Assembly: GCA_903918675.1 (NCBI GenBank)
Contig: CAIXFE010000093.1
Coordinates: 1 to 59,330, forward strand
Direction: 5' to 3'
DNA from: an uncultured bacterium
GTDB taxonomy: Bacteria > Patescibacteriota > Gracilibacteria > Absconditabacterales > Absconditicoccaceae
DNA length: 59,330 bases
Shown here: positions 64 to 47,050 of the stretch, piece by piece
How positions within the stretch are numbered: the stretch's first letter is position 1
How the letters are laid out: each line of letters begins with the position of its first letter
Program-made: the position numbers and the translations under genes
The notes under the pieces: model-generated
Databases searched by the model: none
What the model was told of the DNA's origin: nothing
Seen by the model: the letters and a program-made list of their open reading frames with translations, nothing else

Positions 64-684
64 CTATTTTCTCAATTCAATATTCCATCCAATCAAATAT
101 CATTTTTCTTCTATCGGATGTAATTTTACCTCGAAGAAACAATCTTTCGCTATTTTTTCTATATCTTGGATTCTGTAATTGAAAAGCTGGATTTTAAACT
201 GGTCTTTATTTGCTTTCCGGATGAATTCACGTCTCTGCAGAAAATATCACAGGATCGCCTCTCATCACGTTTTCAAAATTCTATACATCTCAGAGAAGAA
301 ATGATGCAGATCGTTGATATGTTCCAAGACAAAAAAGCTGAACGCGAGATCAAAGGTCTCATCAGGGAAGGGGAGTGTGGACTCCAAATCACAGACAGTC
401 TTTTTTATATTTTTACCATTGGGATGTTTAGCAAGAAGTTTCTCTGCAATATCACAAGCGGTGAAACTTTTGAAGGGATATTTGTCCAATAACTTATAAA
501 TTCTCCCATCGCCTGCGCCGAGATCTATTGCGTCTAAATCTTTCGTTTCCCTAGGCAACAACCTCAAAAAAAATCATCTATCAAAATCATTGAGATGCTG
601 GTGGAAAGCGCCATATTGATCAGCTATCGTATTATAGCCTTCTTGAGGGAGTTTGATGGTAATATGTTTTGATTGATAGGTCAT
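64..684 (-). CDS. class I SAM-dependent methyltransferase
   Basis: Same-frame pieces joined with TGA=Gly. Motif I DLGAGDG. Post-I motif ILKTGGEA, where GG is two tandem TGA (262..267). ATG at 682..684, TAG at 64..66. Confidence 0.8.
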
Positions 685-705
685 TTTTGGAGGGAGAATA
701 AAAAA

Positions 706-820
706 AATCGAGTACCCTCTTTACTTAAAGAGGGGGGACCCGATAGGGTGGGAGATTTTTTTAAACAAAATCCTCCGTCTGCTTCGCATCCACCTCCTTT
801 CGGTAAAGGAGGGATTTAAT
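706..820. repeat. hairpin-pair intergenic element (copy 1)
   Basis: CCCTCTTTACTTAAAGAGGG hairpin, then ACCCGATAGGGTGGGAGATTTTTTT, ATCCACCT and a CCTCCTTTCGGTAAAGGAGG hairpin. Same layout as 5335..5470. Confidence 0.6.
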
Positions 821-830
821 GTTGCTTATT

Positions 831-1229
831 CTAAAAAAAAGTTTTCTCTTTTACTTCATCATGACTCTCTGGCTTGATATATTGTTGCATTTTCTCCTCA
901 ATATTTGGGCTGGGAGTCTGGAGAAATTTATTGAGTTCCGTGCTTTTCTCAGCGGCCTTCTTGAGGTGTACATAATACTTGCTGAGTTCGGAAACCACAT
1001 CAGACATATCATCATTTCTTTCCAAGAGTTCTGTGACCTTCTGTTTCAAGATCGCATTTTGCTGGACGTATTCATCTAGTTCATTGCTGAGATATTGGAT
1101 CTCTTTTCCCGCTTCTTTGAGATTACTTCTCAGTTCATTCACGGTATCTCTATGTTGATATCTGAAATAGAATACAAGGTATCCTATAAGTCCACCTATG
1201 ATTAAAGCCAGAAGAAGATATCAGGTCAT
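831..1229 (-). CDS. membrane-anchored coiled-coil protein (YhcB/DUF1043-like architecture)
   Basis: N-terminal TM segment MTGYLLLALIIGGLIGYLVFYF followed by a heptad-rich helix. One in-frame TGA. TAG stop. Confidence 0.5.
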
Positions 1230-1421
1230 GTTTTTGGATGGAGAATTTAAAATGAATGATGCTGTAAATTTAGTTTCGATATTGAATGCATGATACTCGT
1301 TTCCGAAAGGAAATCAAATAAAAAACGATGTGAGTATGGATAGGAAATATTTCCTGAAAAAAATCATTAAAGAAAAAACCTCTCTTGCGAAAGGTCCTTT
1401 CTATTTGGATGTGGTAAGAAA

Positions 1422-1703
1422 CTAAGATTTCTTGATAGCTCCTTTGAATTCAGATCCAGCCTTGAAAGTAACAACCTTCATTGCAGGGATGCTGATCTTC
1501 TGACTTGGGTTTTGTGGGTTAACACCAGTTCTAGCTTTTCTTTTAGAAGCTTTGAAAGTTCCGAAACCTTGAACTCTAACTTCACCAGATTTCTTTACTC
1601 CAGCAATAACTGTTTCGATGAAAGAGTTAACTAGTTCAGCAGCTAGTTTCTTAGATACGCCTAATTGTTCAGCTAGGCTAGCAATAAGAGCAGTTTTTGT
1701 CAT
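1422..1703 (-). CDS. hup: HU family DNA-binding protein
   Basis: Intact 93-aa ORF. Signature GFGTFKASKRKARTGVNPQNPSQKISIPAMKVVTFKAG. Confidence 0.9.
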   Translation of the reverse strand: MTKTALIASLAEQLGVSKKLAAELVNSFIETVIAGVKKSGEVRVQGFGTFKASKRKARTGVNPQNPSQKISIPAMKVVTFKAGSEFKGAIKKS

Positions 1704-1747
1704 TGTACAAATAATTACTAAATAAAAAGAGTACTTCGTACAGCATC

Positions 1748-1776
1748 ATATTAGGATAGAGTAGCCATATTTCAAG
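1748..1776 (-). promoter_or_regulatory. sigma70-type promoter of hup
   Basis: Minus strand reads TTGAAA-17 nt-TAATAT, about 45 nt upstream of the hup ATG. Confidence 0.45.
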
Positions 1777-1898
1777 GGTTTTTTGATGATTTTTACCTTG
1801 TTTTGGTCGAGATGGATATTGTAAGGTGAGAACTGGCATATCTGGCATCTATAGCGGTCTCCTTTGGCGAAATGGAGTTGACATCTTAGAAAATAATT

Positions 1899-2462
1899 CT
1901 AAGAATTATCGTCCAAAAGATTCTTCAAATACTTGATCGCTCTGCTTATCCTTTGCCTTATCGTATCATTTGCTATTCATGTAAGCACAGCAATCTCATC
2001 ATTTGTTTTCTCTTCGATGAACTTAAAATAAATAATATCTCTGCTGAGATCATCTAATTTTTTCATCACACCTTGGATCCTTTCAAAAGAGAAATCATTT
2101 TCCATCAATAACGATATATCAAATTCATCTACTAACGTATCACCAAAGTCTTCATCTTCTTCAGATTGCTTGAGATCGGTAAATGCCATATCCGTATTTT
2201 TCTTGAAAAAATCTTTGAGCGTATTTTTGAAGATCGTCCAAAAGTATCCTGTGAAAGAAAGCGTATCATCAAAGTGTTTGATCGCCTCTCGAAACTTTAC
2301 ATAAAAATCAGAGATCACGTCCTCAGCATCTTCTTTAGAGAGAAAATAATTAGCATTGATATAACGGAAAAACATATCCACCGTCTGGAGGTAGAACTCA
2401 TTGAAAGCATTTGGATCTTGAGCTTTCAGTTTCTTTATCTGTGAGTCTGAAAGTGCTATCAC
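1899..2462 (-). CDS. sigma-70 family (ECF-type) RNA polymerase sigma factor
   Basis: Region-2-like AEDVISDFYVKFREAI and a C-terminal region-4 HTH NDEIAVLT[TGA]IANDTIRQRISRAIKYLK. GTG start, TAG stop. Confidence 0.7.
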
Positions 2463-2508
2463 GGTTTACTGACTAATATATAAAGTATGGTTTTCATGCT
2501 AGTATGTC

Positions 2509-2593
2509 GGTATATTGGTGTATCGGGGATTGGTGTATTAGTGTATTGGAAAACGGCTGCCTGCCGAATAACCAATAACCAATTGCCAATTAC
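2509..2593. repeat. word-array palindromic element (ATTGG.. / core GGCTGCCTGCC / CCAATAA..)
   Basis: Left arm is repeated (T)ATTGGTGT words and the right arm is repeated CCAATAA/CCAATTG words (reverse-complement sense), around a GC core. Confidence 0.75.
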
Positions 2594-2622
2594 AAGGAGC
2601 TCAGTACATTTATGATCAACAA

Positions 2623-3888
2623 TTAATTCAATAAAGACTTCGCCTTCTCCAACTGATTATCAGTATTGTCTTTTGCGTATGCTCAGGTATCAAATGTCAC
2701 AACCACATCAGGAGCTATACCTACTTTATCTATAGTCTTCCCACTTGGAGCATATCGTCTGCCTATCGTATATTTCAGTGATGCCCCATCAGTAAATTCA
2801 TCTATCGTCTGGATAGATCATTTCCCAAACGTCTGCGTGCCTACGATTTTAGCTCAAGCTCATTCTTGTAAAGCTAGGGCAATAATCTCTCCTGCAGATG
2901 CAGTTCCTCCATCGACAAGAACGATGACAGGTAATCACTGGAGATCTCCGTATCCTTCAGAATAAAATTTCTCATCAGGCAATGTTCTATATCTTGTACT
3001 TACAATGAGACTTCATTTGGGTAGGAAGTGAGAGACAATTTCCGACGCGATAGAGATAAGCCCACCACCGTTTCCTCTCAGATCTAGAATAACTCACTGA
3101 ATGCTTTGTTTTTTCAGACTCAGAATATTGGTTTTCAAAAGGTTCTCTGTCTCTTCTCCTATGATAGAGATATTGATATATCAGATATTTTTACTTCCTG
3201 CTCACGTAAGCACCTCACTCGTGACTGAAGGGATACTCAATTTATCTCTGGTGACTACCTTTTGTAGAACAGTCTTACTGCCATCTTTCCCTATCCTTTC
3301 AAGAGTGATTGTGACTTGGGTCCCTTTGGGTCATCTAATCTTGGCGACAGCACCATTCACATCGAGGTCCTTTACTGATCAACTATCGATCGAAATAATC
3401 CTATCCAAGGGCATTAGTCCAGCAATGGCAGCAGGCGATCATTTCAATACTTCTTCTATCTGCACATAATAGTCTATTTTACTTACCACGGCTCATATCC
3501 CCTCGAAATCGGTCTGCCCCTTGATCTCTTCGTTGAATCAAGAATTTTCCGTGCTATCCATATATACAGTGTACGGGTCATCGATACCATCTACGAATCC
3601 TTTGACAGCATCTTCAATCATAAGCCCACTTTGGAGTTTGCTTTGATCATAATAGGCACTTTGTAAAACACTATATATTGCATCCAAGCGTTGATATGCA
3701 GTATCTCCCAATGCCGATGCTCCAGGATTGACTACTTGCCCTATCGACCTTATGAGTCCATCAATATTGATCTTCCCTTCTTGGATAAGTGGCTGATGGA
3801 GCGCAGTATATTCATATTTAATCTGTCGGACAAATCGGCCTAAAAGGATTCATAATGCAAATATGAGGAGAACTTTCAATTTTTTCAT
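2623..3888 (-). CDS. S41 family C-terminal processing peptidase
   Basis: No piece reaches 60 aa in the standard code. With TGA=Gly there is a continuous 421-aa ORF (checked triplet by triplet, no TAA/TAG). N-terminal TM segment, PDZ-like region, LDLRGNGGG, LVDGGTASAGEI. Confidence 0.8.
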
Positions 3889-3914
3889 ACCTTATATATA
3901 GGGAATATAAAAAA

Positions 3915-4259
3915 CTACGAATTCGTCACATTTTCGTATATTTCGAGAATACGATTCCCCTTCACAAATACAACATCAAGGGAAATCTCTGTCTCGGGAG
4001 GATATCTTAGAAGATAGTATTCCATCGTTTTCCTAAGTGTGGCTATTTTCTTTCTAGTTACATAGCCATCTATCTCATCAGTGTTATTGATGACTTTCAC
4101 CTCTACAAACAGCAGGGGATCTCATTTTCTGAAAATAATATCTATCTCTCCTCAGCGGATAGTATAGTTTTTTTGAAGTAAGGTATATCACAGATCTTCA
4201 TAATGTTTGGTTGCGAGTTCTTCACCGGCCTTACCTACTTCTTTCAGATAGTTATCCAT
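3915..4259 (-). CDS. YraN family (UPF0102) endonuclease-like protein
   Basis: GEELATKHYEDLGY..., RGGEIDIIF, LLFVEVK, and a C-terminal DVVFV motif. Four in-frame TGA codons read as Gly. Confidence 0.7.
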
Positions 4260-4295
4260 AGCCCATTCGTTAGCAATAAATATCATACAGATCCT

Positions 4296-4877
4296 CTAGG
4301 CTTCAAGCTCTTTCTCTACAAAGTCCCGATTCACAATATTCCACCGATTCGTCACGTATTCTACCCTACGATTCTGATACTTCAGGTAATAGGCATGCTC
4401 CCATACATCTACAGTCAATAAAGGTTTTTTATCTAGAGTAAGCGGAGATCAAGCGTTACTCGTATTGATAATCTCTAATGTCCCATCAGGGTTTTTCACT
4501 AGCCAAGTCCGCCCAGATCAGAAGTTGCCGACAGCACTAGCCGTCATTACTTCTTTAAATTTTTCAAAACTTCATCGGTTAGCATTTATCGCTTCTAACA
4601 ATGATCAGGTAGGTTGATTATTCTCTTGTGGCGATTGCAGACAATTTCGATAGAACGTGTGATTCCAAATTTGTGATGCATTATTAAAGATGGGCCCATC
4701 AGCGGTCTTGATAATTTCTTCCAATTCTCGATCCTTAAATCCGGTATCAGCGATCAGCTCATTCAGTTTATTCACATAGCCTTGATGATGTTTACTGTAA
4801 TGAAGCTCGACTGTCTGGGCGTCAATGATGGGTTCTAGCGCATTGTAATCATAGGGGAGAGAGGGGAGAGTGAACAT
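4296..4877 (-). CDS. Fe/Mn superoxide dismutase
   Basis: [29 protein letters not shown] ... [15 protein letters not shown]. Pieces joined across TGA at 4605..4607. Confidence 0.9.
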
Positions 4878-5334
4878 AATAAGGGATTAGGAATTAAAAA
4901 TTAGGCATTGTATTTTTTTAAAATCTAAGGTCCAAGTTCTAAGCGCTAAGCTCTCTGAGTATCAAGCTTCAAGTTTCCAGCCAATAGCAATTGTACCGGT
5001 CGCCGAAGATTTTTCAATAGAAAATACGCTCTTGCAAAACGACATTTTTTCATTATTTATAGAAGTATCTTTATCTATCAAGCAATTTATGCTCAGAGAA
5101 AGCTTCAACGCAACGTGTTGTACAAACGGTAGAACTACTGGAGCTTTTCTCGATCGCATAAAAAGATAGAACATACTATTTTGCAGCTGCGCCTTCTGGG
5201 AAACTCCAGAGGTTTTTTTTAATTCGACGAAAGAAAATTTATGAATCTATTGCAGAAAATATTATATCGAGATGATTCGTGTCGAAACAAAATTTCTATA
5301 CGTAAAAGAATCTCTAAATAATTCAAATTTTACT

Positions 5335-5524: not shown

Positions 5525-6430
5525 ATGAAACTAAATATTGAATGACTCTTACAAACCGTACCCATGATCCCTATCAAGGGAATCAGAGACAATACCGTCC
5601 ATGCGCTGATGGAGAAATATAATATTACTGGATCCGTGAAAGTGAAACCCGTCTATCGAATCCTCAAAGATGCTCACGAAAAATGATTATTAGATTGAAA
5701 TAAAATTGCCCTAGAAGCTTCCAGTGGGAATACTGCTATCGCATTAGCCTATCTCTGAAATCTTTTTGCTCTTCAGGTCCAGATCATCCTTCCTCGCACC
5801 ACTTCGCCTTGCAAAAAAAAATTGATCCAATCCTATGGCGCTGAGATCATAGAGATCGATGGGTCTACAGATATAGGGATTAAACTGAGAGATCGCATGC
5901 ACGCAGAGAATCCAGGTAAATATTTTCTTCCCGATCAATTCAGTAACTACGCTAACTTCCGAGCGCATTACCATCTCACAGGCCCGTATATCTTACAGAA
6001 ATTAGGGAAAATAGATTTCTTCATCGCAGGATTATGAACCTCATGAACTCTGCTCGGCGCTGGGAAATATCTCAAAGAACATCTGCCAGATATCAAGATT
6101 ATTTGAATTAATCCACTGGAGAGGATCGAAGGATTGAGAAACTTCAAAGCTACAGATATTGTGATTCCATTTTTTGAAGAACATAAATGACTGATCGATG
6201 AAATCATTGATGTGACCTTCGATCCCTGTGTCATCTCTGGAGTCCAAGAGTATCTCAAAGAAGGCTATTTCGTCGGTATCTCATCCGGTGCCATCTTGAG
6301 CGGAGCCAAAAAGTATCTCCATGGCAAATCTGGACTCAAGTGAGTAATTGTGGCTCCGGATGGTGGCGATTATTATCTCGATACCTTAGTGAAATATCTA
6401 GATGCAGAAGATTTCGTGGCTTGCAAGTAG
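5525..6430 (+). CDS. cysK: cysteine synthase family PLP-dependent enzyme
   Basis: NITGSVKVKP (PLP lysine region), EASSGNTAIALA, GLGTSGTLLG with both underlying glycines of G-x-G encoded by TGA. 301 aa, TAG stop. Confidence 0.75.
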
Positions 6431-6472: not shown

Positions 6473-6570
6473 GAAGGGCTTGAAAGGTTTGAAAGGTAAG
6501 AAAGCCTTGAAAGGTTTCCGAAAAAAACTCCCTTTATCCCTTTGCGCCTTTATTCCCTTTCCTTCCCCTC
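6473..6570. repeat. word-array palindromic element (GAAAGG / CCCTTT)
   Basis: Left arm CTTGAAAGGTTTGAAAGGTAAGAAAGCCTTGAAAGG, right arm CCCTTTATCCCTTTGCGCCTTTATTCCCTTTCC. Confidence 0.7.
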
Positions 6571-6577
6571 CGTCCAT

Positions 6578-8461
6578 ATGCAAGACATCATACTTCAGCT
6601 ATTCCATACGCCAACAAGCAAATTAGATCTTGATCTCCTTACTCAGCTCAAGAGAAGTTTTTCTAGAACTCATAAATTACCTGATCTTCCTTCAAACATC
6701 CAACTATTACAAGCTTACTACACCTTACTCAAAGCCAAAAAAATCAAAAAAACTCCTCAGATAGAACAGCTACTTAAGAAAAGAGCGATCAGATCTAGTT
6801 CGTGAATCGTAGCCATCCAGGTGCTTACCAAGCCCTTCCCCTGCCCAGGTCAGTGTATTTTCTGTCCCAACGATCCGACTATGCCCAAGAGTTATATCAA
6901 GTCAGAACCGGGTGCAATGAGGGCATTGCTCAATCATTTCGATCCGATCAAACAAGTATACAATAGATTGCTTTCACTGACATTGACCGGTCACGAAACC
7001 GATAAGATCGAGATGATCGTCTTGTGAGGGACATTCGACGTTTACACGAAAGCCTACAAAACGAAGTTTGTGAAAGAGTTATATGATGCCTGCAATACCT
7101 TCGATGAATATTTCGATAATATCACCGTCTCTACCACGACGAAATATTCTCACGCCATCACGGATAAGAGCAAGAAGATAAAATACTCGGCGAACATTAC
7201 TGAGGCACTCAAAAGAAATGAGAGCACAGCACATAGGATCATTTGACTCACTATCGAGACCAGACCTGAATATGTGACAGATGAGAACTGCAAATTTCGA
7301 CGTGAGTTGGGGGTAACAAGGATCGAGATGGGGTTGCAGTCTCTGGATGAAGAAGTCTTAAAGCTGAATAAGAGAGGGCATACGGTCCAGCAAGCACGCA
7401 TGGCCTGTGATAAACTCAGGAGGTATGGCTTCAAGATCTGTCTGCATATCATGCCAGGATTGTATGGCTCGAGTTATGCAAAAGATTTGAAGAGTTTCGA
7501 AGATCTTTATTCTGATCCATTTTTCAAACCCGATGAAATAAAATTTTATCCGACATCAGTCATTCCAAACACCCAACTCTGCAAACTCTACCAAGAAGGC
7601 AAGTACAAACCTCTGGAAACATCAGAGATAAAAAAACTTATTACTCAGACCTTTCTTCACGTTATCCCTCCCTACACCAGGATCAAGCGTCTCATCCGCG
7701 ATATCCCAGAAAACGAAATCGTTGCATGAAGCAAAGTAACGAATCTTTCGCAATTGATGCACGAAGAAATGCAATCAAAAATTGAAAATTGAAAATTGAA
7801 AATTGAAAATTTAACCGGAAGACTTTATGATAAATATAAACTTTTCAAAACAGTGAAAGAATTTCTAAGTGTCATTGCGAGTGAAGCAAGGCAATCCAGA
7901 AAGTGAAATAATGATGCAACATATATCATTGGTAAGAAGCCCGATCTAAAATCATTGAGAAACTTCGTATCATTAGATACAAGGAGTAGAGAAATTAGAA
8001 ATAAAATTAGAAATTGAAAATTGAAAATTGAAAATTGATCTCCGAATCTTGTGATGAGGAGATATCAGAGCAGCGCAGGGGAGGAGTACTTTATTTCATT
8101 CGAAGATGAGTTGGGATACTTGTACGGATTTGCAAGATTACTATTGCCCAAAGATGGAAAGAATCTAAGCTCTAAGTTCCAAGTGCTAAGCTCTAAAACG
8201 GCGATCATTAGAGAATTGCACGTTTATTGAAACGTTGAAACCCTCAAACAATGAAACAATGCGACACTGAAACACCGAAACAATAAGACTCAACATACTT
8301 GATTCTGAAAACAACTCATGCAGCTCGCCGAACAAATTGCAAAGGGAAACAATTACAAAAAACTTTCCGTAATCTCCGGCATTGGTGTCAGAGCATATTA
8401 CAGAAAGCTTTGATATAGACTCGAGTGAAGCTATATGGTGAAGAAAATTACTTCGTCTTAG
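6578..8461 (+). CDS. Elp3-like radical SAM / GNAT tRNA-modifying acetyltransferase
   Basis: CPGQCIFCP radical-SAM cluster motif, LTIETRPEY, MGLQSLDEEVL. C-terminal GNAT region [41 protein letters not shown]. All pieces lie in one frame with TGA=Gly. Confidence 0.8.
7778..8038. repeat. intragenic word-array element inside elp3
   Basis: (GAAAATT)4 at 7778..7812, hairpin GTCATTGCGAGTGAAGCAAGGCAATCC at 7871..7897, (GAAATTR)6 at 7990..8038. Translated in frame. Confidence 0.7.
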
Positions 8462-12937: not shown

Positions 12938-13049
12938 GTTAAAAGGTTAAAGAGTTGAAAGGTTAAAGGGTTATTAATGAGATAAAAACACGTTAACCCG
13001 TTAACACACTAACTCGGTAACTCGCTATAACTCGCCAACCCGTTAACCA
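12938..13049. repeat. word-array palindromic element (GGTTAAA / GTTAACC)
   Basis: Left arm GTTAAAAGGTTAAAGAGTTGAAAGGTTAAAGGGTTA, right arm CGTTAACCCGTTAACACACTAACTCGGTAACTCGC...CCCGTTAACC. Period is about 7 nt. Confidence 0.75.
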
Positions 13050-18965: not shown

Positions 18966-19145
18966 TTAGGGAATAAAGGTGCAAAGGACAGAAAGGTGCA
19001 AAGGGAAAAATAGAAGGGGGTGCAAAGGCATAAAAGGATCAAAGGTATAAAAGGGATTTCACTTTCCTACCTTTCAAACCTTTCTTCCCTTTCAAGCCTT
19101 TCCTACCTTTCAAACCTTTCTTCCCTTTCAAGCCCTTTCTTCCCG
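18966..19145. repeat. word-array palindromic element (AAAGG.. / CCTTTC.., 9-nt period)
   Basis: Left arm AAAGGTGCAAAGGACAGAAAGGTGCAAAGGG.... Right arm is CCTTTCAAA CCTTTCTTC CCTTTCAAG CCTTTCCTA, present twice. Confidence 0.8.
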
Positions 19146-19183: not shown

Positions 19184-21262
19184 ATGCAAATACGTAACTT
19201 TTGTATCATCGCTCATATCGATCATGGAAAATCAACATTAGCCGATAGGATGCTTGAGATGACTTGAACCGTGAGGAAAATCGATCATAATCAGATGCTG
19301 GATCGCATGGATATCGAACAAGAAAGAGGGATCACCATTAAGTTAACTCCAGCGAGAATGCACTGGAAAGGGTATGAACTCAATCTCATCGATACTCCCG
19401 GACATGTAGATTTCCAGTATGAAGTCTCTCGTTCTCTCGCCGCTGTAGAGGGCGTCATTTTGTTGATCGACTCAAGTCAATGAATCCAAGCGCAGACACT
19501 TTCCGTATTGTATATGGCAGTAGAGCAATGATTAGAAATCATCCCCGTCTTAAATAAAATCGATCTCCCTGCCGCACATCCAGAAAGAGTGGCCAAAGAA
19601 ATCGAGCATGTGATAGGGATCCCTAAGGAAGAAATTTTATTAGTCTCATGAAAGACAGGGGAGTGAGTGGAAGAAGTATTGGATGCGATTATCGAAAGGA
19701 TCAAAGATCCTGATACCTTCAAAAAAGAAAATCCTCAGAAATATCGACCTGCTGGAAGTCATTCTGAGAGAAGCGAAGAATATAATAAGGCCAATGATAT
19801 CCTTCACAAAAGTTCAGGATGACACGATTGAATCTCCAGAGCCCTTATTTTCGATTGTGTCTATGACGCATACAAAGGCGTAGTCGCGTACGTCAAAGTC
19901 GTAGAATGATCATTCAAAGCAGGGGAGTCAATGCATCTCATCCATTCCGATACCGATATCATCGCGACTGAAGTCTGACATTTTTCTCCAGAATATACCA
20001 AAGATAAAACATTATCTCATGGGCAGATCGGCTATATTCTTACCTGATTAAAATCCGTCCGTGATGCACAAATTGGCGATACAATCATATGATGAATTGA
20101 AAATTGAAAATTAGAAATTAAAAATTTGCGTGATTTTATTGTGCCTGGTTTCAAGAGGGTCAAGCCATACGTCTATGCAGGCATGTACCCCGTCGATACG
20201 AATGATTATGAAAAACTCAAAGATAGTTTAGAAAAATTATCATTGAACGATAGTGCTGTAGAATATTCACTAGAAGACAGTAAAGCACTGGGATTTTGAT
20301 TTCGCTGTGGATTTCTGTGAATGCTGCACATGGATATCATCAAAGAAAGATTACGGAGAGAATATGGCATCGAGACTATCTTTACCATCCCTACGGTAGT
20401 CTATCTCGTGAAATCCAAAAACCTCAGCATCCCCGAGATCAAATCCGGGAACAATATCCAGACACTCCTTTCTACCTGACTCTACAAAGATGTTTTGATC
20501 TACGAAAAATATACGACAGCTATTTCCAGTGATGACTTAGATGATATTGTTACCAATAATACTATCGATCCCTCTGAGATCTCATCAGAAATCTCTTCCG
20601 CTCTCACCCCCCGGATCGTCGTAAAATCAGGTTCGGATCTGCTCGATCAAGGCATCATGGATATCATCTTGGAGCCTATCGCAGAAGTGGAGATCGTCGG
20701 ACCCAAAGAATATGCAGGCAATATCATGGCCCTCAGCAATGAATACAGAGGCAGCCTCAAGTCGATGGATTACCTCGATGAGAATAGGGTAGTGTGGAAG
20801 TACGAATTACCCTTCGGCGAGATCATCATCGATTTTTACGACAGATTGAAGTCAGCGACAAAGGGCTATGCGACGATGAATTACGAATTCAAGAGATATC
20901 AAGAGGCCGACCTCGTCAAGATGGATATTTGGATCAATAATGAGAAAGTCGAGGCCTTGAGCTGGATCGTTCACAAGGATAAAGTCTATTATCTCGGTAG
21001 AGAAGTGACAGAAAAGCTTAAAACTCTGATCCCCAAACATCTGTTTACTATTCCTGTCCAGGCGGGTGTCGGTACCAAGATTATTGCTCGCGAAACTATT
21101 CCCGCTATGCGCAAAGATGTGATCGCGAAATGTTATGGAGGTGATGTAACGAGAAAAAGAAAATTATTGGCAAAGCAGAAAGAAGGAAAGAAGAAGATGA
21201 AAGCATTGGGTAATGTTAACGTGCCTTGAGACGTCTTTATAAAAATGGTAACCAGGGATTAG
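19184..21262 (+). CDS. lepA: elongation factor 4 (LepA)
   Basis: [20 protein letters not shown][TGA][58 protein letters not shown]. 692 aa because of low-complexity insertions. Confidence 0.95.
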
Positions 21263-21355
21263 GAATCGGTGAGCAGGAAGCAGGAATCTGTCCGAGCCCG
21301 GCCCCAATAAACCTGCCTGCCGGCAGGCAGGCCAATTCCCGATAAACCAATAAAC
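21258..21355. repeat. word-array element with perfect 20-nt palindrome core
   Basis: Core CCTGCCTGCCGGCAGGCAGG at 21312..21331, flanked by ..GGAATCGGTGAGCAGGAAGCAGGAAT.. and CCAATTCCCGATAAACCAATAAAC. Confidence 0.75.
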
Positions 21356-25442: not shown

Positions 25443-26156
25443 CTATTTCGTTTCATCTTCAATATCATCAGGATCGGGAATCTTTGCAACTTTTTTATTC
25501 TTCATTTCATCTTCTAAGAGAAGAAGAATCATAAGATTAGCAATGATCGTCTGATGATCACCATCAAGATGTTCCAGGTGAACCTTCTTTGTGATAGGCT
25601 TCCTTGCATCAATATATGGTGTATCTATCTTTTTTTTGATATTGAATGCTTCAAAAAGCATTCTAACATATTTCTCTCTCTTTTTGAGCGGAGCCTTTAA
25701 AACTTCAACAAGAGGGCGTTTATTTGCATACATTAAAAATTGCTGATCAATAAGACGATCTATTTTTCAAGTAACATCATCTAGATTTAGTTCTTCTATT
25801 GCCAATAGTTGTCACTTATCAAGTGAAAGATGCTCCCTGATAGCAGGGACCAAAGATCTCAACGCATTCCTTTTAAGGACAAGGAGATCTTCATGTACTC
25901 ATTCCTTACTCTTAATCTGCTGTGCAGGATCCTCGATAATGGAAGTGATCTGTTCTTGCCACTTACCATCTATCTTATCCCGCACGTGATTTTCTTTATT
26001 TCCCTCAATTTCTTTGATGAATTCATATAACTTAAAATCAGCTTCGGTTTTTTCATACGTTTTTGAAAATATGGTATCTTGAAGAGTTGAATTATACTTT
26101 AATTCTTTTTTTGTGACATCCACGTTTGTGGTATCCATATTTGTTTTAGCAATCAT
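25443..26156 (-). CDS. hypothetical protein (co-oriented, immediately upstream of the SLT gene)
   Basis: Two track ORFs joined across TGA at 25899..25901. 237 aa. Confidence 0.5.
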
Positions 26157-26166
26157 AAGAGAGAGG

Positions 26167-26223
26167 TTGAAAAGGTAAAATAATTTGCTATAATTAGTAT
26201 ACTTATTTTTTTTTATTTGTCAA
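26167..26223. promoter_or_regulatory. back-to-back divergent promoters
   Basis: Plus strand has TTGAAA-16-TATAAT (26167..26194) and minus strand has TTGACA-16-TATACT (26196..26223). Each lies 40 nt from its ATG (26234 and 26156). Confidence 0.5.
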
Positions 26224-26233
26224 AAAATAGGCA

Positions 26234-27262
26234 ATGAAAAAGCGAAGGTACAGAATAATCGGGATATTGGCGATAGTACTCATTGTCCTCTGAGCCATTT
26301 CGGGGCATATTCACCTGCAATTCTGAAATGGTACTCAATCCACAACCAACTTTCAACCTTCCACTTTCAACCTTCAACAGATTCAGAATATCACTGGGAA
26401 GTTACTTATTTTCCCATGAGCATTTGACCAATTTTTCACCATGATCGGACATACCCAAACCTGACTCCAGATCCAGACCTACGAATTCACCGAGAAAAAG
26501 ATCAAAGACCTGTTCAAAAATCTTTTGGACAAGGGAGTCTCTATTCAACTTATTTTAGAAAATCACCCCTACGAAGCCTATGTCGATGAATTTACACCGA
26601 TAAAAAATGCCTTTTCTGGATATGCAAATTTCGCTATCAAGTCCGACCAGCAGATGAAGACAGAATACGTACATAGCAAGATAGATCTCATGGATCAATC
26701 GTTTCTCATCAAGACTGCCAATCTGACGCACTCATCACTGTTTAGCAATCGTGAATATATGTTTTATAGTACCGATTCATGAGTGCTGCAAAGTCTAAAA
26801 ACCATCTTCGCCAAAGACCGAGCAGGGGAGCCGATCAAACCCAGTGACATTCATCCCAATCTCGTCATCTGCAATATCAATTGTAGAACCGTCATAGAGA
26901 GCATTCTCCAGCAAGCAAAATCATCCATCATCATCCAGACGCAATACATCAACGATCCTGCGATCCTGGACATTCTCTCCAGCCAGCAGAAGAAATTGAG
27001 CGAGATGAAGCTCCTTGTGGCCGATGTCACGACTAATGATATGCTCAAAAGTTATTTACCTGCAGTGACCAAGAAATTATCTAAGCCGTATCTCCATGCC
27101 AAGATGATCCTCATCGATCATAAGATTCTCCTCTTATGAAGCATGAACCTCTCAGCGAATTCTCTAGATAAAAATAGAGAAATCTGAATTTTGCTTCTCG
27201 ATCCAACTCTCATTTCCCAGTTCAGTGCACAATTCACGAAGGATTGGGGAAGTGGGAGGTAG
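26234..27262 (+). CDS. phospholipase D / cardiolipin-synthase-like protein (two HKD motifs)
   Basis: N-terminal TM segment. HSKIDLMD..IKTANLT and HAKMILIDHKILLLGSMNLSANSLDKNREIG. Confidence 0.8.
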
Positions 27263-27330
27263 AACGATGGATGGTTTAGAACGATAGGTTGTAGAACGAT
27301 GGAGTAGTGGAGAGATTCATAGAACGATAG
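27260..27330. repeat. left word array (TAGAACGATGG x4) flanking the four-helix-bundle gene
   Basis: Copies at 27260, 27277, 27292 and 27320. Reverse complement of the array at 27789..27845. Confidence 0.8.
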
Positions 27331-27356
27331 AGATTTATTAATTTACAACTTAAACG

Positions 27357-27719
27357 ATGAATGTAAGTTATCAAAAATTAGATGTATGGCAAAGAGCAAT
27401 GAATCTTATTGATACTATATATGAGATAACCAAATCATTTCCCAAAAATGAATTTGCTCTTGTAGATCAGATGAAAAGATCAGCAGCTTCCATTGCGGCA
27501 AACATTGCAGAGTGAGATCAGAGGAATACGAACAAAGAGAATGTAAATTTTCTTTATATCGCCAAATGATCAGCCGCGGAGACACAAACACATCTGCTTA
27601 TCGCCCAAAGACAAGGGTTTGTCAAAAAAGAGAAGGCAGCTATTCTAGATCAGGATATTACTATCATTCTCAAGATGCTATCATCATTGATATGATACAA
27701 GAAACAGCATCCAAAATAG
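27357..27719 (+). CDS. four-helix-bundle protein (23S rRNA intervening-sequence protein / Avd-like family)
   Basis: YQKLDVWQRAMNLIDTIYEITKSFPKNEFALVDQMKRSAASIAANIAEG...FLYIAKGSAAETQTHLLIA. Confidence 0.8.
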
Positions 27720-27788
27720 GAGGATGGACCATTAGACTTATAGAACGATTGTTCTATCGCTCGTCCTCCACCAAGGAGGGTTCCAACT

Positions 27789-27845
27789 CCCATCGTTCCA
27801 GAATCCACAGCCCATCGTTCAATCGTTCCAACCCCTATCGTTCCA
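27789..27845. repeat. right word array (CCATCGTTCCA x4)
   Basis: CCCATCGTTCCA, CCCATCGTTCAATCGTTCCA, CCTATCGTTCCA. Preceded by hairpins ATAGAACGATTGTTCTAT (27740..27757) and CCTCCACCAAGGAGG (27765..27779). Confidence 0.8.
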
Positions 27846-27931
27846 ATCCGAAGGTTTTTTCAATTGAAAAAAATAATCACATCAGTATCAATCTTTTAAT
27901 CTGTCAGTCTTTTAATCTGAGAATCCCAATT

Positions 27932-28366
27932 ATGTCCGATCTCACAATTCCGTTCATCAAACTTTCAGAGAAAGCGAAGATCCCTTCTCAAGCCACTCCG
28001 TCTGATGCTGGATATGATCTCTTTTCTACCGAGAACTATATCCTCAAACCAGGAGAAAGAAAATTATTTCAGACAAATATTTCCACTGCGATACCTCATG
28101 GCTACTATGGAAGGATTGCACCACGTTCATGATTGGCAAATAAACAGGGAATAGATATCCTAGCAGGAGTTATAGATTCATGATATAGAGGCGATATCGG
28201 TATCGTTGTCATCAATTTCGGTCAAGAAGATTTCCAAGTAAACGAATGAGATAGGATAGCACAATTCATTATAGAGAAATGTCACGAAGTGGAATGGAAA
28301 GAAGTGACTGAATTGATGGAGAGTGAAAGAAGTGAATGAGGACGAGGAAGTACAGGATTTAAATAA
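27932..28366 (+). CDS. dut: dUTP diphosphatase
   Basis: SDAGYDL, GRIAPRSGLA, GVIDSGYRGDIGIVVINFG, DRIAQ, C-terminal GG.GSTGF. Confidence 0.9.
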
Positions 28367-28469
28367 AATTGAGAGATGGAGGATTGAGGGATTGAGAAAT
28401 GAATCCTTTTCTGCTGTTAACTGTTATCCGTTATCCCCACCCCAGATACTTTATACTTTACATTCAATC

Positions 28470-29255
28470 ATGGACGAAAACGAAATCATCATCAAAAGCA
28501 GCAAACAGATTGCGAACATCAGGAAATCCGGGAAATACCTGACCCAACTCCTGAAGGAAATCAGAGATGCAGCAAAACCTGGTATCAAGCTCATAGAGCT
28601 AGAATTCATCGCAGAAGATTTTGTCAGAAAAAATAATGTAAAAGGAGCTTTTAAATGATACAATGGGTTTCCGGCTATTTTATGCTTATCTGTCAATGAA
28701 TGCTTAGTTCATGGGATCCCAGATCAGTATACTCTCAAAGAAGGCGATGTCCTCAAAATCGATGCAGGGATAAATTATTTATGATGAATCAGTGACGCAG
28801 CCATTACCGTGATCATAGGAGGAGAAAAGGCGAATCCATTAGGATATAAATTAGCCAAAGTTACTAAAGAAGGCTTGGACGGAGCCATACAGAAAGTCTG
28901 ACCGGGGAAAAAGATGTATGACTATTCACATGAGGTCTACACGCACGTTTTGAGTCAGTGATTCACGATCATTGAAAAACTGACCGGACATGGAGTAGGC
29001 GTAAGAGTCCATGAAAGACCCTATATTCACAATCATCCTCACCATCAAGATACCAAGACGACGACATTTACACCAGGGATGATCTTGGCATTTGAGCCCA
29101 TCACAGCGATCCAATCCAAAGATTTTGAGCTGAGAAGATGAAATGATCGAAATTTATATACCAAAAAATGAGATCTCTGAGCCCACCGAGAATACACAGT
29201 ATTAATTACGGAGAATTGATATGAGATTTTAGCTGGCCTAACTGAGTTTAATTAA
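28470..29255 (+). CDS. map: type I methionine aminopeptidase
   Basis: VHGIP, DVLKIDAG, GHGVGVRVHERPYI, FEPI, EYTVLITENG. Confidence 0.95.
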
Positions 29256-35586: not shown

Positions 35587-35768
35587 TTCTCATATAGGTA
35601 ATAGGCAAATGTAGGAGATCGAATTAATGTATAATTGATAATTAATAATTGATAATGATGGTGTCTTTTAATATCAAAAAAAACTCCGACATTATACATT
35701 CTACATTATAAATTATTCATTCCATTCATCTCGCTTCTCTACACTTTTTAGCCGCTTAATAATGGTAT

Positions 35769-36497: not shown

Positions 36498-36941
36498 ATG
36501 GCAGGAAAAATTACTAACATTCTTAATCTAGAAATACCCGCTGGGAAAGCTCAGCCATCTCCACCGCTAGGACCTATGCTAGGAGCCAATGGAGTCAACA
36601 TCTGACAATTCATCAAAGAATTCAATGAGAAGACCATGGACCATATGAAACAATTTGCTGGTGTAGATGTGAAAGTAAAAGCGACATTGACCATCTACGC
36701 AGATAGATCTTTTGACCTCAAGATCGGAAGCCCCGTAACATCAAATCTGATTCTATGGAAACTCAAATTACCTAAATGATCTGGAGAACCCAACAAAACC
36801 AAGATAGGGAAACTCACCAGAAAAGATCTAGAAGAAATTGCTGAACTCAAAAAAGGAGATATGAATACTGACGACCTCGAAGCGATGATCAAAGCGATTG
36901 CAGGTACTGCAAAAAATATGGGAGTAGATATCGAAAAGTAA
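36498..36941 (+). CDS. rplK: 50S ribosomal protein L11
   Basis: [23 protein letters not shown][TGA]QF. Confidence 0.95.
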
Positions 36942-36942
36942 T

Positions 36943-37010
36943 TGAAACGTTGAGATATTGAGACATTGAGAGATTACAATTCTCAATCCTCAATCTCTCA
37001 ATCCTCAATA
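36943..37010. repeat. word-array palindromic element (TTGAGA / TCTCAA) between rplK and rplA
   Basis: TTGAAACGTTGAGATATTGAGACATTGAGAGA - TTACAA - TTCTCAATCCTCAATCTCTCAATCCTCAATA. Confidence 0.8.
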
Positions 37011-39663: not shown

Positions 39664-39775
39664 ATTGTTATTGGTAATTGGTAATTAGTAATTGGTTATT
39701 GGGCCGGAAGCCTTCTCCCAATACACCAGCCCCCAATATACCTGCCTACCGGCAGGCAGGCCAATACACAAATAT
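39664..39775. repeat. word-array palindromic element (GTAATTG / CCAATAC) with CCTGCC..GGCAGG core
   Basis: ATTGTTATTGGTAATTGGTAATTAGTAATTGGTTATTGG - GCCGGAAGCC - ..CCAATACACC..CCAATATA - CCTGCCTACCGGCAGGCAGG (39741..39760) - CCAATACAC. Confidence 0.8.
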
Positions 39776-43259: not shown

Positions 43260-43330
43260 TACTATATATTACAAAGTAAATGTACTTTTCCTAATCTAAG
43301 GTCTAAGCCCCAAGCTCTAAGTTCTAAATG

Positions 43331-44815: not shown

Positions 44816-44920
44816 AGATTCTTAATTTTTAATTTTTAATTTTCAATTTTTAATTTTTAATTTTCAAAGAATTTCTAAGGCCTAAGCTCTAAGGTCTAAG
44901 TCCTAACTCTAAATTCTAAA
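44816..44920. repeat. word arrays (TTTTAAT/TTTTCAA then CTAAGNT) between atpA and atpC
   Basis: TTAATTTTTAATTTTTAATTTTCAATTTTTAATTTTTAATTTTCAAAG followed by CTAAGGCCTAAGCTCTAAGGTCTAAGTCCTAACTCTAAATTCTAAAGG. Confidence 0.75.
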
Positions 44921-46421
44921 GGCTAATTTCCTCATATGCTTCCTGGATAAGTGTCTTCATTTTGGTCTCTATATCTTCAGTAAGTGCTTGTTCCTTCAGG
45001 ATAAGATCTGATAATGCTTTGTGGGTCGTATCCATTTTCTGGTACAATAATTTCTCGAATGGCAAAACTTTGTCGATAGCCAATTCATCGATATATCAGT
45101 TGATACCAGCGTAAATCAATACTGCTTGTTTGTAGAAGGGGATAGGATCATTGTTTGCTTGTTTCAACATCTCCACCAATCTCTTTCCTTTTTCTATCTT
45201 CCTTTGTGTAGAAACATCTAATTCTGATGCGAACTGAGCGAAACTTGCTAACTCCCTGAAGGATGCCAATTCAAGTCTCAGCTTTCCAGAGACCTTCTTC
45301 ATGATCTTAGTCTGAGCATTTCCTCATACACGAGAGACAGAAAGTCCTACATCGATAGCAGGCCTATTTCCAGAATTGAAAAGTTCAGTCTCAAGAAATA
45401 TTTGTCCATCCGTGATAGAGATCACATTCGTAGGGATGTATGCTGATACGTCCGAATCAAGAGTCTCGATCAAAGGTAATGCAGTCAGACTTCCTCCTCC
45501 ATAATCTTTATTTAACCTCGCAGCTCTTTCCAATAATTTGGAATGCAGATAGAAGACATCACCAGGATAAGCTTCCCTGCCTGGAGGTCTCCTCAGCAAC
45601 AATGATACTTCTCTATATGCGACTGCATGTTTACTCAGATCATCATAAATGATCAAAGCATCTTTTCCTTGATCCATAAAATATTCTCCCAATGCACATC
45701 CCACATATGGAGAGATGTATTGCAACACTGAAGGAGCATTTGCAGGAGCGGTAATCACGATCGTATATTCTAGCGCACCTTTTTCTCTCAAAAGCTCAAC
45801 TATTCTTCTGACCTTAGATTCTTTCTGACCGATAGCCACATAGATACAATAGACACCTTTTCCTTTCTGGTGCAATATCGTATCGATAGCGATCGTCGTC
45901 TTTCCTGTCTGCCTATTTCCGATAATCAATTCTCTCTGTCATCTGCCGATAGGCACCATACTATCGATAGCCTTGATACCAGTTTCCAAAGGCGTATCTA
46001 CCATATGTCTCGTAATGACTCCAGGAGCGATCTTCTCCACGGGAGCTAATTTCGTAGGTTTAATCTCTCACAATCCATCGATAGGTTCACCGATACCATT
46101 GAGGACTCTGCCTAAATAATTATCGCCAACTCCGACACTGAGGACTCTCCCCATAGCGGTGACTGTATCTCATTGACTGAGGCCACTATAATCTCCCAAG
46201 ATCAAGACACCAACAGTGTCACTGGAGAGATCGAGCACCAATCATTTCGTGCCATTTTCAAATTCGACAATCTCGGAAAACATCGCATCATCCAATCCTA
46301 CGACGATAGCGACTCCATCTTTCAATTCCAAGATTTCTCATTTTTTGGAGAACGAATCATTGAGATCGGACGCTTGAATGTCCTTCTCGATCTTCTCCAA
46401 AATTTCTTTCACGACTTGCAT
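44916..46421 (-). CDS. atpA: F1 ATP synthase subunit alpha
   Basis: [67 protein letters not shown]. Confidence 0.97.
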
Positions 46422-46447
46422 TGGTTGATAGTATAATAGAATAAAAG

Positions 46448-46588
46448 TTGCTTATTGAGGTGACGGCCTCAGATGGCCACAAATAGCCTCAGATGGCTGC
46501 AGGTCGTTAATTTATCTTTTCTTAAAGAAAAATTAAATAAACAATCTGTGGCAACCTGTGACAATATGAAGCAACCTGTGGCAATACC
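46448..46588. repeat. word-array element (CCTCAGATGGCCAC / CTGTGGCAACC)
   Basis: GGCCTCAGATGGCCAC and AGCCTCAGATGGCTGC on the left, CAATCTGTGGCAACCTGTGACAAT..GCAACCTGTGGCAATACC on the right. Shares words with 1..62. Confidence 0.75.
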
Positions 46589-47050
46589 TTAACTTCAAAG
46601 AATTGTATCAAGATCCCTCTCTAAATTCCTATGATAACGATATCCCTCACCTTTGAGATCGACACCGAGAGCGGGCGCATCGACGAAGGTCACATCAGCA
46701 TCTTTGAAGGTTTGATGGATAAAGGTATCCAAAGTCTTCTGCTGAGATACTCCAGCATTGATCGTAAATTCTTTCCTATATTGTGCATATACCTTTTTAC
46801 AAATCTTGACGATATCACTGAGATCTCTTGTATTTGCTTTGCCTAAGGTATGGAGGAATCCATAGAGCTTAGCAATTTCTGGATTTTGTTTGCTGATAAT
46901 TTGTAGATATCCATCTCAAATATCCAACTTATGACCATAAGATTTGACCAATGAGGAAATCACCAAAAGATAGCGAAGGACTTCCTTCTCTTCCAGCGCC
47001 TGCACAAAAAATTTGCGCACTAAATCTTCATTGGAAATAAATCTTTTCAT
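46589..47050 (-). CDS. atpH: F1 ATP synthase subunit delta (OSCP)
   Basis: Position between atpF and atpA. C-terminal VDAPALGVDLKGEGYRYHRNLERDLDTIL resembles the OSCP tail. Start is uncertain (a GTG at 47107 would add a hydrophobic segment). Confidence 0.6.

Follow-up and report, generated by a model that had tools for sequence, protein, structure and literature searches.

What is a gene of the 23S rRNA intervening sequence (IVS) protein family doing outside any rRNA, and do the short inverted words on its two sides belong to it? The locus that raises these questions is part of a 59,330-nt stretch of DNA (GC content 38%), hereafter the window, which was analyzed over its whole length. It consists of a four-helix-bundle (4HB) gene with an array of short words on either side. 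An earlier note had proposed that the words and the gene are parts of one cassette whose arrays pair into a long stem. In the reading that we hold to be moderately probable, the locus is an IVS-type cassette, i.e., a promoterless PF05635 gene in the loop of a long imperfect hairpin, which would be transcribed together with its host genes and cut by RNase III. The evidence comes from the window itself, from relatives at other sites, and from a family-wide comparison of flanking sequences.

The four-helix-bundle gene

The 4HB gene was located at 27357-27719 on the forward strand and encodes a basic protein of 120 aa with an isoelectric point of 9.5. The open reading frame (ORF) is open only when TGA is read as a sense codon (code 25). 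In-frame TGA codons, read as Gly, were found at residues 53, 71, and 113 (27513-27515, 27567-27569, and 27693-27695), and two of the three fall on Gly positions conserved in the family (NIAE-G and AK-G). Code 25 applies across the window, and translation with table 11 makes most genes, including the 4HB gene and its neighbors PLD and dut, look fragmented. The closest database relatives are metagenome-assembled genomes of SR1/Absconditabacteria, and the TGA usage is consistent with that.

The family assignment made earlier was borne out by profile searches. The protein matched PF05635 with 125.3 bits (E 1.5e-36, residues 6-109; cut-off 33.8 bits) and TIGR02436 with 120.4 bits (E 3.7e-35; cut-off 24 bits). 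The nearest solved structures were PDB 2GSC, i.e., XCC0516 (E 9e-18), and 2RLD, both deposited with five chains; XCC0516 was described as a homopentamer (PMC4990558). A single-sequence search recovered at least 20,202 clusters at the 50% identity level, so PF05635 is a large family.

The fold is homologous to that of Avd, the accessory protein of diversity-generating retroelements (DGR), with which the window protein shares its basic character and the five chains of its solved homologues. A degenerate DGR remnant with an orphan avd gene was considered. The protein matched bAvd PF22296 (23.7 bits) and the NCBIfam Avd equivalog model NF033474 (21.8 bits) only weakly, and both scores are far below the cut-offs of 40 and 80 bits. 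Six-frame code-25 ORFs of at least 150 aa were screened for the reverse transcriptase motifs YxDD and [ILV]GxxxSQ, both being required, and none in the window carried the two. No template repeat/variable repeat (TR/VR) pair was found in the 59 kb; direct repeats of at least 30 nt were mostly short-unit arrays, and the rest were weak repeats of 30-59 nt (60-95% identity). The lack of reverse transcriptase-like ORFs and TR/VR pairs in the window, which the earlier note had also reported, together with the low Avd scores, excludes a DGR here. Homologues of the gene are situated in housekeeping operons without reverse transcriptase, and flanking arrays are no described feature of DGRs. An orphan avd gene is thus a very improbable explanation.

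Word arrays and inner hairpins

The upstream array (27260-27330, forward strand) has four words, i.e., TAGAACGATGG at 27260 and 27292 and TAGAACGATAG at 27277 and 27320, with start-to-start spacings of 17, 15, and 28 nt. They had been described as four copies of one word. All four are present, but two are exact copies and two have one mismatch. The downstream array (27790-27849) has four words on the reverse strand, i.e., CCATCGTTCCA at 27790, CCATCGTTCAA at 27812, CAATCGTTCCA at 27820, and CTATCGTTCCA at 27835, and also CCAATCC, which pairs with GGATTGG in the 3' end of the PLD gene. The count of four complementary copies was right as well, but the complement is inexact. An exact reverse complement of the upstream word would read CCATCGTTCTA; the downstream words carry C at a position where T is needed, which gives one A·C mismatch per word in sense RNA.

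The core of the words, GAACGAT, occurs exactly 16 times in the 59,330 bases, against a whole-window expectation of 8.0 +/- 2.8. Nine of these copies, five on the forward and four on the reverse strand, are placed within about 600 bp (27262-27843), and at no other place in the window are the words clustered. The two inner hairpins of the earlier note were also recognized. The first, ATAGAACGATTGTTCTAT (27740-27757, forward strand), is placed just past the 4HB stop codon and is made of a fifth forward word (TAGAACGATTG, 27741) and its partial inverted copy. The second, CCTCCACCAAGGAGG (27765-27779, forward strand), is a small local hairpin. As noted before, the first word overlaps the stop codon of the upstream PLD gene; the TAG at 27260-27262 is its first three nucleotides.

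Predicted pairing of the arms

The proposed stem with the ORF in its loop was recovered by folding. For 27240-27860, RNA folding predicted a minimum free energy (MFE) of -165.7 kcal/mol (z -3.5), and the long-range stem was present in both the MFE and the centroid structures. The predicted stem joins 27241-27328 with 27792-27849 by 50 pairs (24 GC, 21 AU, and 5 GU) with a mean pair probability of 0.57, and the last seven codons of the PLD gene (27241-27262) make its outer 5' portion. The arm-arm duplex had a z of -4.9. A closing stem was likewise predicted in the MFE and centroid structures of a homologue at another site, L091 (L-numbers are labels of the relatives' loci compared with the window).

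The same cassette at other sites

The closest homologues (L001-L005, 72-78% identity) are placed between glmS and tRNA-Ser, not between PLD and dut. Their genes are flanked by copies of GGAACGAT upstream and of CTATCGTTCTA downstream, and the TAG stop codon of glmS is the beginning of the first word. L091 (55-58% identity) occupies a third site, with two copies of TAGAACGATAG upstream and two of CTATCGTTC downstream, and the host stop again supplies the first TAG of the array. Words of the type TAGAACGATRG / CTATCGTTC thus flank homologues of 55-78% identity at two further sites. The more distant L090 and L102 have different words, i.e., TTAGAT(G/C)-type units, and L095 has TCWTTAG units; in all three, the arms are still complementary. 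The earlier note had put forward flanking by inverted arrays as a check among relatives. Such flanks were found at L001-L005, L091, L090, L102, and L095, and roughly half or more of the 76 loci in the family-wide sample described below have them too.

The cassette is not fixed in place. At least six different insertion sites are used within the clade, and one of them is empty in the window. L090 is occupied at the junction of UPF0102 and S41 peptidase genes, where arrays and the 4HB gene take about 550 bp in the gene order SOD-UPF0102-cassette-S41-sigma-HU. The same string of genes was found in the window at approximately 64-4877 on the minus strand, where the UPF0102 gene (3915-4286) and the S41 peptidase gene (2623-3888) are separated by an array-free spacer of 26 nt (3889-3914). 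This occupied-empty pair is too diverged to fix the ends of the element. The same words accompany the gene at different sites, and the site without the gene has no arrays either. These comparisons show that arrays and ORF make up one unit that is gained or lost together, in line with the earlier proposal of one cassette. Of the outcomes that the earlier note had named as speaking against its idea (no stable long-range pairing, relatives without inverted arrays, a cassette fixed in place), none refuted it.

The PLD/dut junction itself was informative only in part. No 4HB gene follows the PLD orthologues of 61-71% identity, but the genes that do follow them are not dut, so a clean empty PLD/dut site was not obtained. 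These orthologues are conserved up to FTKDW, and their tails diverge after it.

The arrays change in length. L095 and L096, from near-identical strains, encode identical 4HB proteins, and their downstream arrays differ by one TAATGAC unit and one substitution. Judged from this pair, the difference is copy-number slippage, like that of the heptamers in the IVS of Coxiella. The downstream arm of L090 (4364-4510) has a 49-nt unit in three copies, each with CTAATCCTCTAAGCATCTAATC, so arms can also grow by duplication of larger blocks.

Two predictors of word type were discarded. The words do not follow the protein phylogeny, since the protein of L091 is nearest to that of L090 (62%), yet its words are common with the window clade and not with L090 and L102. 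The loop after NIAEG (DQRN versus SERG) did not predict the words either, as L102 has NQRN but TTAGATC words. In a scan of viral contigs with the paired TAGAACGATRG pattern, a single match was found (L130) and no cassette; this match was rejected as a chance one, since on this giant-virus contig a Rab-like GTPase gene adjoins an unrelated 25-nt tandem repeat. A scan of a genome collection with the single 4HB protein gave only four distant relatives, which were of no use for synteny.

Two other arrangements were observed in these relatives. In L003, the 38 nt directly after the 4HB cassette (4984-5021) duplicate the 5' half of tRNA-Ser(GGA) without a mismatch and stop in the anticodon loop. The complete tRNA (6039-6126) is 1.06 kb further on, and a 253-aa membrane-protein gene on the minus strand is between the two. 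The arrangement looks like an insertion into a tRNA gene. In L099, an ORF-less heptamer array (TAG AATTGA AAATTGA GGATTGA TAATTGA GAATTGA, then partial complements) was found at 4027-4100, at the stop codon of a PLD orthologue of 65% identity. It may be what is left of a cassette at a junction that is occupied in the window. It does not count as a clear hairpin remnant, because its fold is no better than that of shuffled sequences (z -0.8).

Gene-in-hairpin layout across the family

For the family-wide comparison, 80 standard-code family members from diverse bacteria were sampled by a metagenome scan. Inverted 7-mers common to both 130-nt flanks were counted for 76 unrelated PF05635 loci and for 394 control ORFs of the same contigs. 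At least six such 7-mers were shared in 54% of the loci against 5.6% of the control ORFs, and at least ten in 30% against 1.8% (Mann-Whitney p 7e-18 for the two distributions). The mean per locus was 8.64 and the median 6, whereas mismatched pairs of upstream and downstream flanks had a mean of 1.15 and 366 other ORFs of the same contigs a mean of 1.9. The duplex energy of the arms was below that of shuffled sequences with a median z of -2.4, and 39% of the loci were below -3. Upstream flanks were G-rich in 86% of the loci and downstream flanks C-rich in 73%.

The units are mostly heptamers. The array period was a multiple of 7 in 57% of 179 flanks and in 6% of 1,798 control segments. Examples are (GGCAGTA)5 / (TACTGCC)3, (AGGGTGT)4 / (ACACCCT), (CGGGTCT)3 / (AGACCCG)4, and four plus four copies of GAGCCAA.

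The position of the loci was also non-random on one side. Of 65 loci, 54 have their upstream neighbor in the same orientation, and the median gap is 55 nt, whereas the orientation of the downstream neighbor is random (32 of 62 co-oriented). In 36 of 57 loci, the upstream ORF stops within the array or no more than 3 nt ahead of it, and 29 of these 36 stop codons are TAG. Array starts were taken from Tandem Repeats Finder (TRF) coordinates; the first shared 7-mer was dropped as a marker of the start because it was too noisy. Among trinucleotides, TAG has the highest enrichment upstream (1.38x); downstream, CTA (1.31x) ranks near the top, after TGG, ACT, and GGC.

Independent samples bore this out. 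The design recurred in four of six plasmids from cultured organisms (Nostoc, Calothrix, Leptolyngbya, and Riemerella), and about 5 of 13 viral contigs had it as well. One plasmid-borne 4HB gene, in pPg_01 of Pseudanabaena galeata (L108, record 46268-46627), is placed between cas6 and cas4. This context may explain why "23S rRNA IVP" was listed among CRISPR-adaptation-associated domains in the FLSHclust survey (PMC10910872).

Some hosts recur, i.e., sdhA/frdA in four loci (L020, L037, L050, and L059) and the GDP-mannose dehydratase gene gmd in three (L012, L086, and L089). The words differ among loci with the same host, each locus is self-complementary, and their 4HB proteins are not mutual nearest relatives. 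These hosts suggest preferred landing sites or very old insertions. All-versus-all DNA comparison of the sample revealed no rRNA-embedded loci, only common protein-coding hosts.

Could the layout be an accident of array-rich spacers? In this explanation, slippage makes array hairpins in most spacers and a 4HB gene came to lie in one of them without any functional link. The window has many ORF-less array hairpins (e.g., 36941-37009, 19010-19145, and 12938-13048), and the array at the PLD stop of L099 is ORF-less too. However, other ORFs of the same contigs rarely have inverted flanks, as the tally above reveals. The same words accompany the gene at three different sites, the empty site is without both arrays and gene, and the pattern is replicated in cyanobacterial and Bacteroidota plasmids. 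By these comparisons the accidental explanation is largely refuted, and we consider it quite unlikely. The layout, with locus-specific and mostly heptamer units, encloses roughly half or more of the relatives in this sample from across bacteria, which suggests a widespread cassette type.

Neighboring genes and transcription signals

The cassette lies between a PLD gene and dut, as was stated before. The PLD-family gene (26234-27262, forward strand, 342 aa, code 25) was assigned by PF13091 (E 2.9e-32), and the downstream host gene dut, encoding dUTPase (27932-28366, forward strand), by PF00692 (E 5e-40). The neighbors are housekeeping genes, and those for the PLD-family protein, dUTPase, methionine aminopeptidase, and RuvC are all on the same strand. 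Over the whole window, no Rfam family scored at or above its gathering threshold; the locus is thus outside any rRNA, as the earlier note had it.

A promoter-like site, TTGAAA-16-TATAAT with TG (11 of 12 consensus matches), was found upstream of PLD at 26167-26194 on the forward strand. None was found in the upstream array, and the site upstream of PLD is the only good one. Transcripts that run through the cassette probably start there. No terminator-like site, i.e., a GC-rich short-loop hairpin followed by a T-run, was found in 26100-28500. A run of six T (27855-27860, forward strand) begins 5 nt past the 3' arm; it is peculiar to this locus and no trait of the family. Since T-runs past the 3' arm (8.8% of loci) are hardly more frequent than T-runs at random positions (6.8%), a role as giant terminator was dropped.

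RNA stem, DNA arms, or binding sites

In the IVS-type reading, read-through transcription from the PLD promoter would extend over the cassette. In this RNA, 27241-27328 would pair with 27792-27849 into an imperfect stem of about 50 pairs, and RNase III would probably cut the stem, by analogy with the homologous rRNA-borne element of Coxiella (PMC4990558). After the cut, the 4HB mRNA would be free of the PLD and dut messages, and an operon would therefore tolerate the insertion as 23S rRNA tolerates an IVS. The complementarity of the arms would be kept by concerted evolution at the DNA level, i.e., by slippage and copying between arms, and not by slow compensatory substitution. Over evolutionary time, the cassette would be gained and lost at different operon junctions.

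Several observations weigh against this reading. In the window, the antisense arms pair better than the sense arms (-68.9 versus -57.6 kcal/mol), the sense stem has its A·C mismatch at each word, and the antisense strand of the cassette folds as well as the sense strand. Single-stranded DNA (ssDNA) parameters give the same stem (z -2.8), so the pairing could matter at the DNA level. In the family, no difference between sense and antisense duplex energies was detected (37 versus 47 loci, p 0.42). The transition mismatches of the arms were G·U-compatible in 60 cases for sense and 76 for antisense (p 0.20), and this lack of a sense-strand bias is compatible with a purely DNA-level role. Taken together, the neutral sense-strand tests and the A·C mismatches of the sense strand suggest that a DNA process which treats both strands alike keeps the arms complementary. 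Clear arrays are missing from about 30-45% of family members; L107 has the upstream array alone, and the arrays of L108 are direct, not inverted, with (AAAAGCT)n upstream and (AAAAGCC)n downstream. The ORF of the Coxiella IVS is probably untranslated (PMC4990558). Finally, the 11-mer is kept between cassettes whose proteins are only 55-58% identical.

These observations bring up two alternatives. The first is that the arms act at the DNA level only. They would belong to a non-autonomous element that moves or recombines, and would serve it as terminal inverted repeats (TIRs) or, in ssDNA, as hairpin arms. The multi-word ends would be recombination or transposition ends, or hairpin substrates in replication, and the RNA pairing would be incidental. 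The strand symmetry of the mismatch spectrum and of the duplex energies agrees with this, as do the ssDNA fold, the presence/absence pattern, and the multiple insertion sites. In some assemblies the contig ends at the cassette or beside it (L001, L002, and L097, the last being the same strain as the window). A 3-nt GAA is present on either side of GGATTGG...CCAATCC, which is weak evidence, as a 3-nt match occurs by chance about 1 in 64 times and the triplet falls within conserved PLD codons. No transposase or recombinase was found in or beside the cassette, nor a second cluster of GAACGAT words in the 59-kb window. The words differ by cassette, so no single trans-acting enzyme could recognize all of them. 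The orientation bias to the upstream gene is what a dependence on transcription predicts. Arms that act only as DNA are a possible but rather doubtful explanation.

The second alternative is that the words are binding sites, in DNA or RNA, for the basic and pentameric 4HB protein or for a host factor, with a role in autoregulation or packaging. Complementarity would then be a by-product of the symmetric arrangement of sites. The exact 11-mer TAGAACGATAG is kept in several copies at unrelated sites, next to proteins of 55-78% identity, whereas number and spacing vary. This retention exceeds what a pure pairing constraint predicts and hints at a sequence-specific constraint, possibly a binding site. 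The four to five words per arm can be set beside the five chains of the solved homologues, and the high isoelectric point and the abundance of arrays elsewhere on 4HB contigs also fit. However, the words do not track protein phylogeny, and the ORF-less arrays of the window use many different units. No nucleic-acid-binding data for non-DGR members of the family were found in the literature. Words that are primarily binding sites are, in our view, unlikely.

Arrays without ORFs in the window

The spacers of the window are rich in ORF-less short-unit arrays, which the earlier note had overlooked, and several consist of a G-rich array followed at once by its complement. Such array hairpins, with units of 7-9 nt, were found at 36941-37009, 19010-19145, 12938-13048, 6473-6560, 35625-35725, and 39665-39746. 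The one in the rplK/rplA spacer (36941-37009) has four copies each of ATTGAGAN and TCTCAATCC and a fold z of -3.5. The hairpin at 19010-19145 also had a z of -3.5, and the range of the ORF-less hairpins was -1.8 to -3.5. They resemble the 4HB cassette minus its ORF, and their units differ widely. Given so many ORF-less arrays, the cassette can be described as an array hairpin with an ORF in its loop among others that have none. By analogy, the cassette and the ORF-less hairpins parallel rRNA IVSs with and without ORFs.

Single arrays were also identified. Heptamer arrays with TCTAAG(C/G) units (4915-4954, 8155-8194, 43286-43325, and 44865-44904) are of the same type as the downstream arms of the L090 and L102 cassettes. 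AAAATTG arrays are placed at 7778-7811, 8003-8038, and 20095-20126, and the complement at 44818-44864. In the family sample, 4HB contigs are array-rich away from the gene too (6.0% of control segments against 0.8% of shuffled sequences).

Two further repeats were noticed. A 40-nt GC-rich element with the palindrome CCTGCCTRCCGGCAGGCAGG has two copies of 90% identity (21297-21336 and 39726-39765), the second of which adjoins the array hairpin at 39665-39746. A repeat of about 55-59 nt with GTGGC-type units (AACAATCTGTGGCCATCTGAGGCAATGTG...) is direct at 22-80 and 46540-46598 and inverted at 46454-46508. It is thus found at both ends of a 46-kb stretch, with the inverted copy beside the second end.

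Comparison with known systems

The closest known system is the IVS of 23S rRNA. In Coxiella burnetii, the IVS of helix 45 has a 28-bp terminal stem and strain-variable tandem heptamers (GACAGAT in two to three copies), and the RNase III cut at the first repeat was shown experimentally (PMC4990558). The same study cites RNase III excision in Leptospira and others, IVSs with an S23p/IVP ORF in Leptospira, Brucella, and Xanthomonas, and the old idea of the IVS as a mobile element. The window element shares with these the PF05635 protein and the ORF in the loop of a stem made of terminal complementary sequences, and both are regarded as selfish or neutral inserts in a transcribed region. Unlike them, it is placed between two protein genes and not in helix 25 or 45, and a host stop codon marks its beginning. 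Each arm consists of scattered 11-nt words where Coxiella has a clean 28-bp stem, and processing of the window element by RNase III is presumed by analogy.

Arrays of heptamers have been reported as short tandemly repeated repetitive (STRR) sequences of cyanobacteria, as TAACTGA arrays of Beggiatoaceae and cyanobacteria (PMC4679880), and as G-rich heptamers of Xanthomonas and Nostoc (PMC4692102). Bacterial heptamer arrays were called unexplained in 2015 (PMC4679880, PMC4692102). Like the arms of the cassettes, they are intergenic tandem units of 7 nt with variable copy number, often right before start codons and overlapping upstream stops. The units contain stop codons, and the taxa overlap (cyanobacteria, Bacteroidota, and Xanthomonas). 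However, single arrays are described in those two papers, and paired complementary arrays around a PF05635 gene are unmentioned.

Two kinds of mobile repeats are also similar in layout. REPtrons, i.e., genes of repetitive extragenic palindrome (REP)-associated tyrosine transposases (RAYT), and bacterial interspersed mosaic elements (BIME) made of REPs likewise combine a gene between inverted short repeats with many ORF-less repeat hairpins in spacers. The 4HB protein, in contrast, is no Y1 (IS200/IS605-like) transposase, as its Pfam and NCBIfam matches are to four-helix-bundle families only, and the hairpin units vary within the window genome whereas REPs form one sequence family per RAYT. Miniature inverted-repeat transposable elements (MITEs) and other TIR elements share inverted ends, the absence of a transposase, and presence/absence polymorphism. 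The window cassette differs in that it carries a conserved protein gene, and its ends are arrays of locus-specific words; neither a multi-copy identical family nor a convincing target-site duplication was seen in the 59 kb.

No description of non-rRNA PF05635 genes bracketed by complementary arrays was found in the literature, including the heptamer-repeat papers, a paper on rRNA insertions in CPR bacteria, and the FLSHclust survey; the older subscription literature was covered in part, so an earlier mention of the architecture is possible. From the sequence comparisons above, the window cassette seems to be one ordinary member of a large, undescribed class.

Implications for the family

The bracketing of 4HB genes at many non-rRNA sites, across phyla, joins the IVS-protein family and the heptamer arrays into one testable object. 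As a family-wide layout, it predicts RNase III-type processing sites within operons, and its words supply concrete oligonucleotides for assays of protein binding. It also makes the IVSs of rRNA a special case of a general cassette. The arrays can pass for CRISPR-like repeats, and some of the sampled contigs end at or beside arrays.

A broader and more speculative idea, for which we claim no more than a limited likelihood, is that PF05635 genes form a single ancient and widespread class of cassettes, i.e., heptamer-array hairpins that insert at the stop codons of transcribed genes. The protein would bind, generate, or maintain the arrays and so be functionally tied to them, and the best-known landing sites would be the IVSs of rRNA. 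If this is true, the ORF-less heptamer arrays and hairpins (STRR-like) that fill spacers in cyanobacteria, Bacteroidota, Xanthomonas, and Absconditabacteria would have their ORF-bearing counterparts in the 4HB cassettes.

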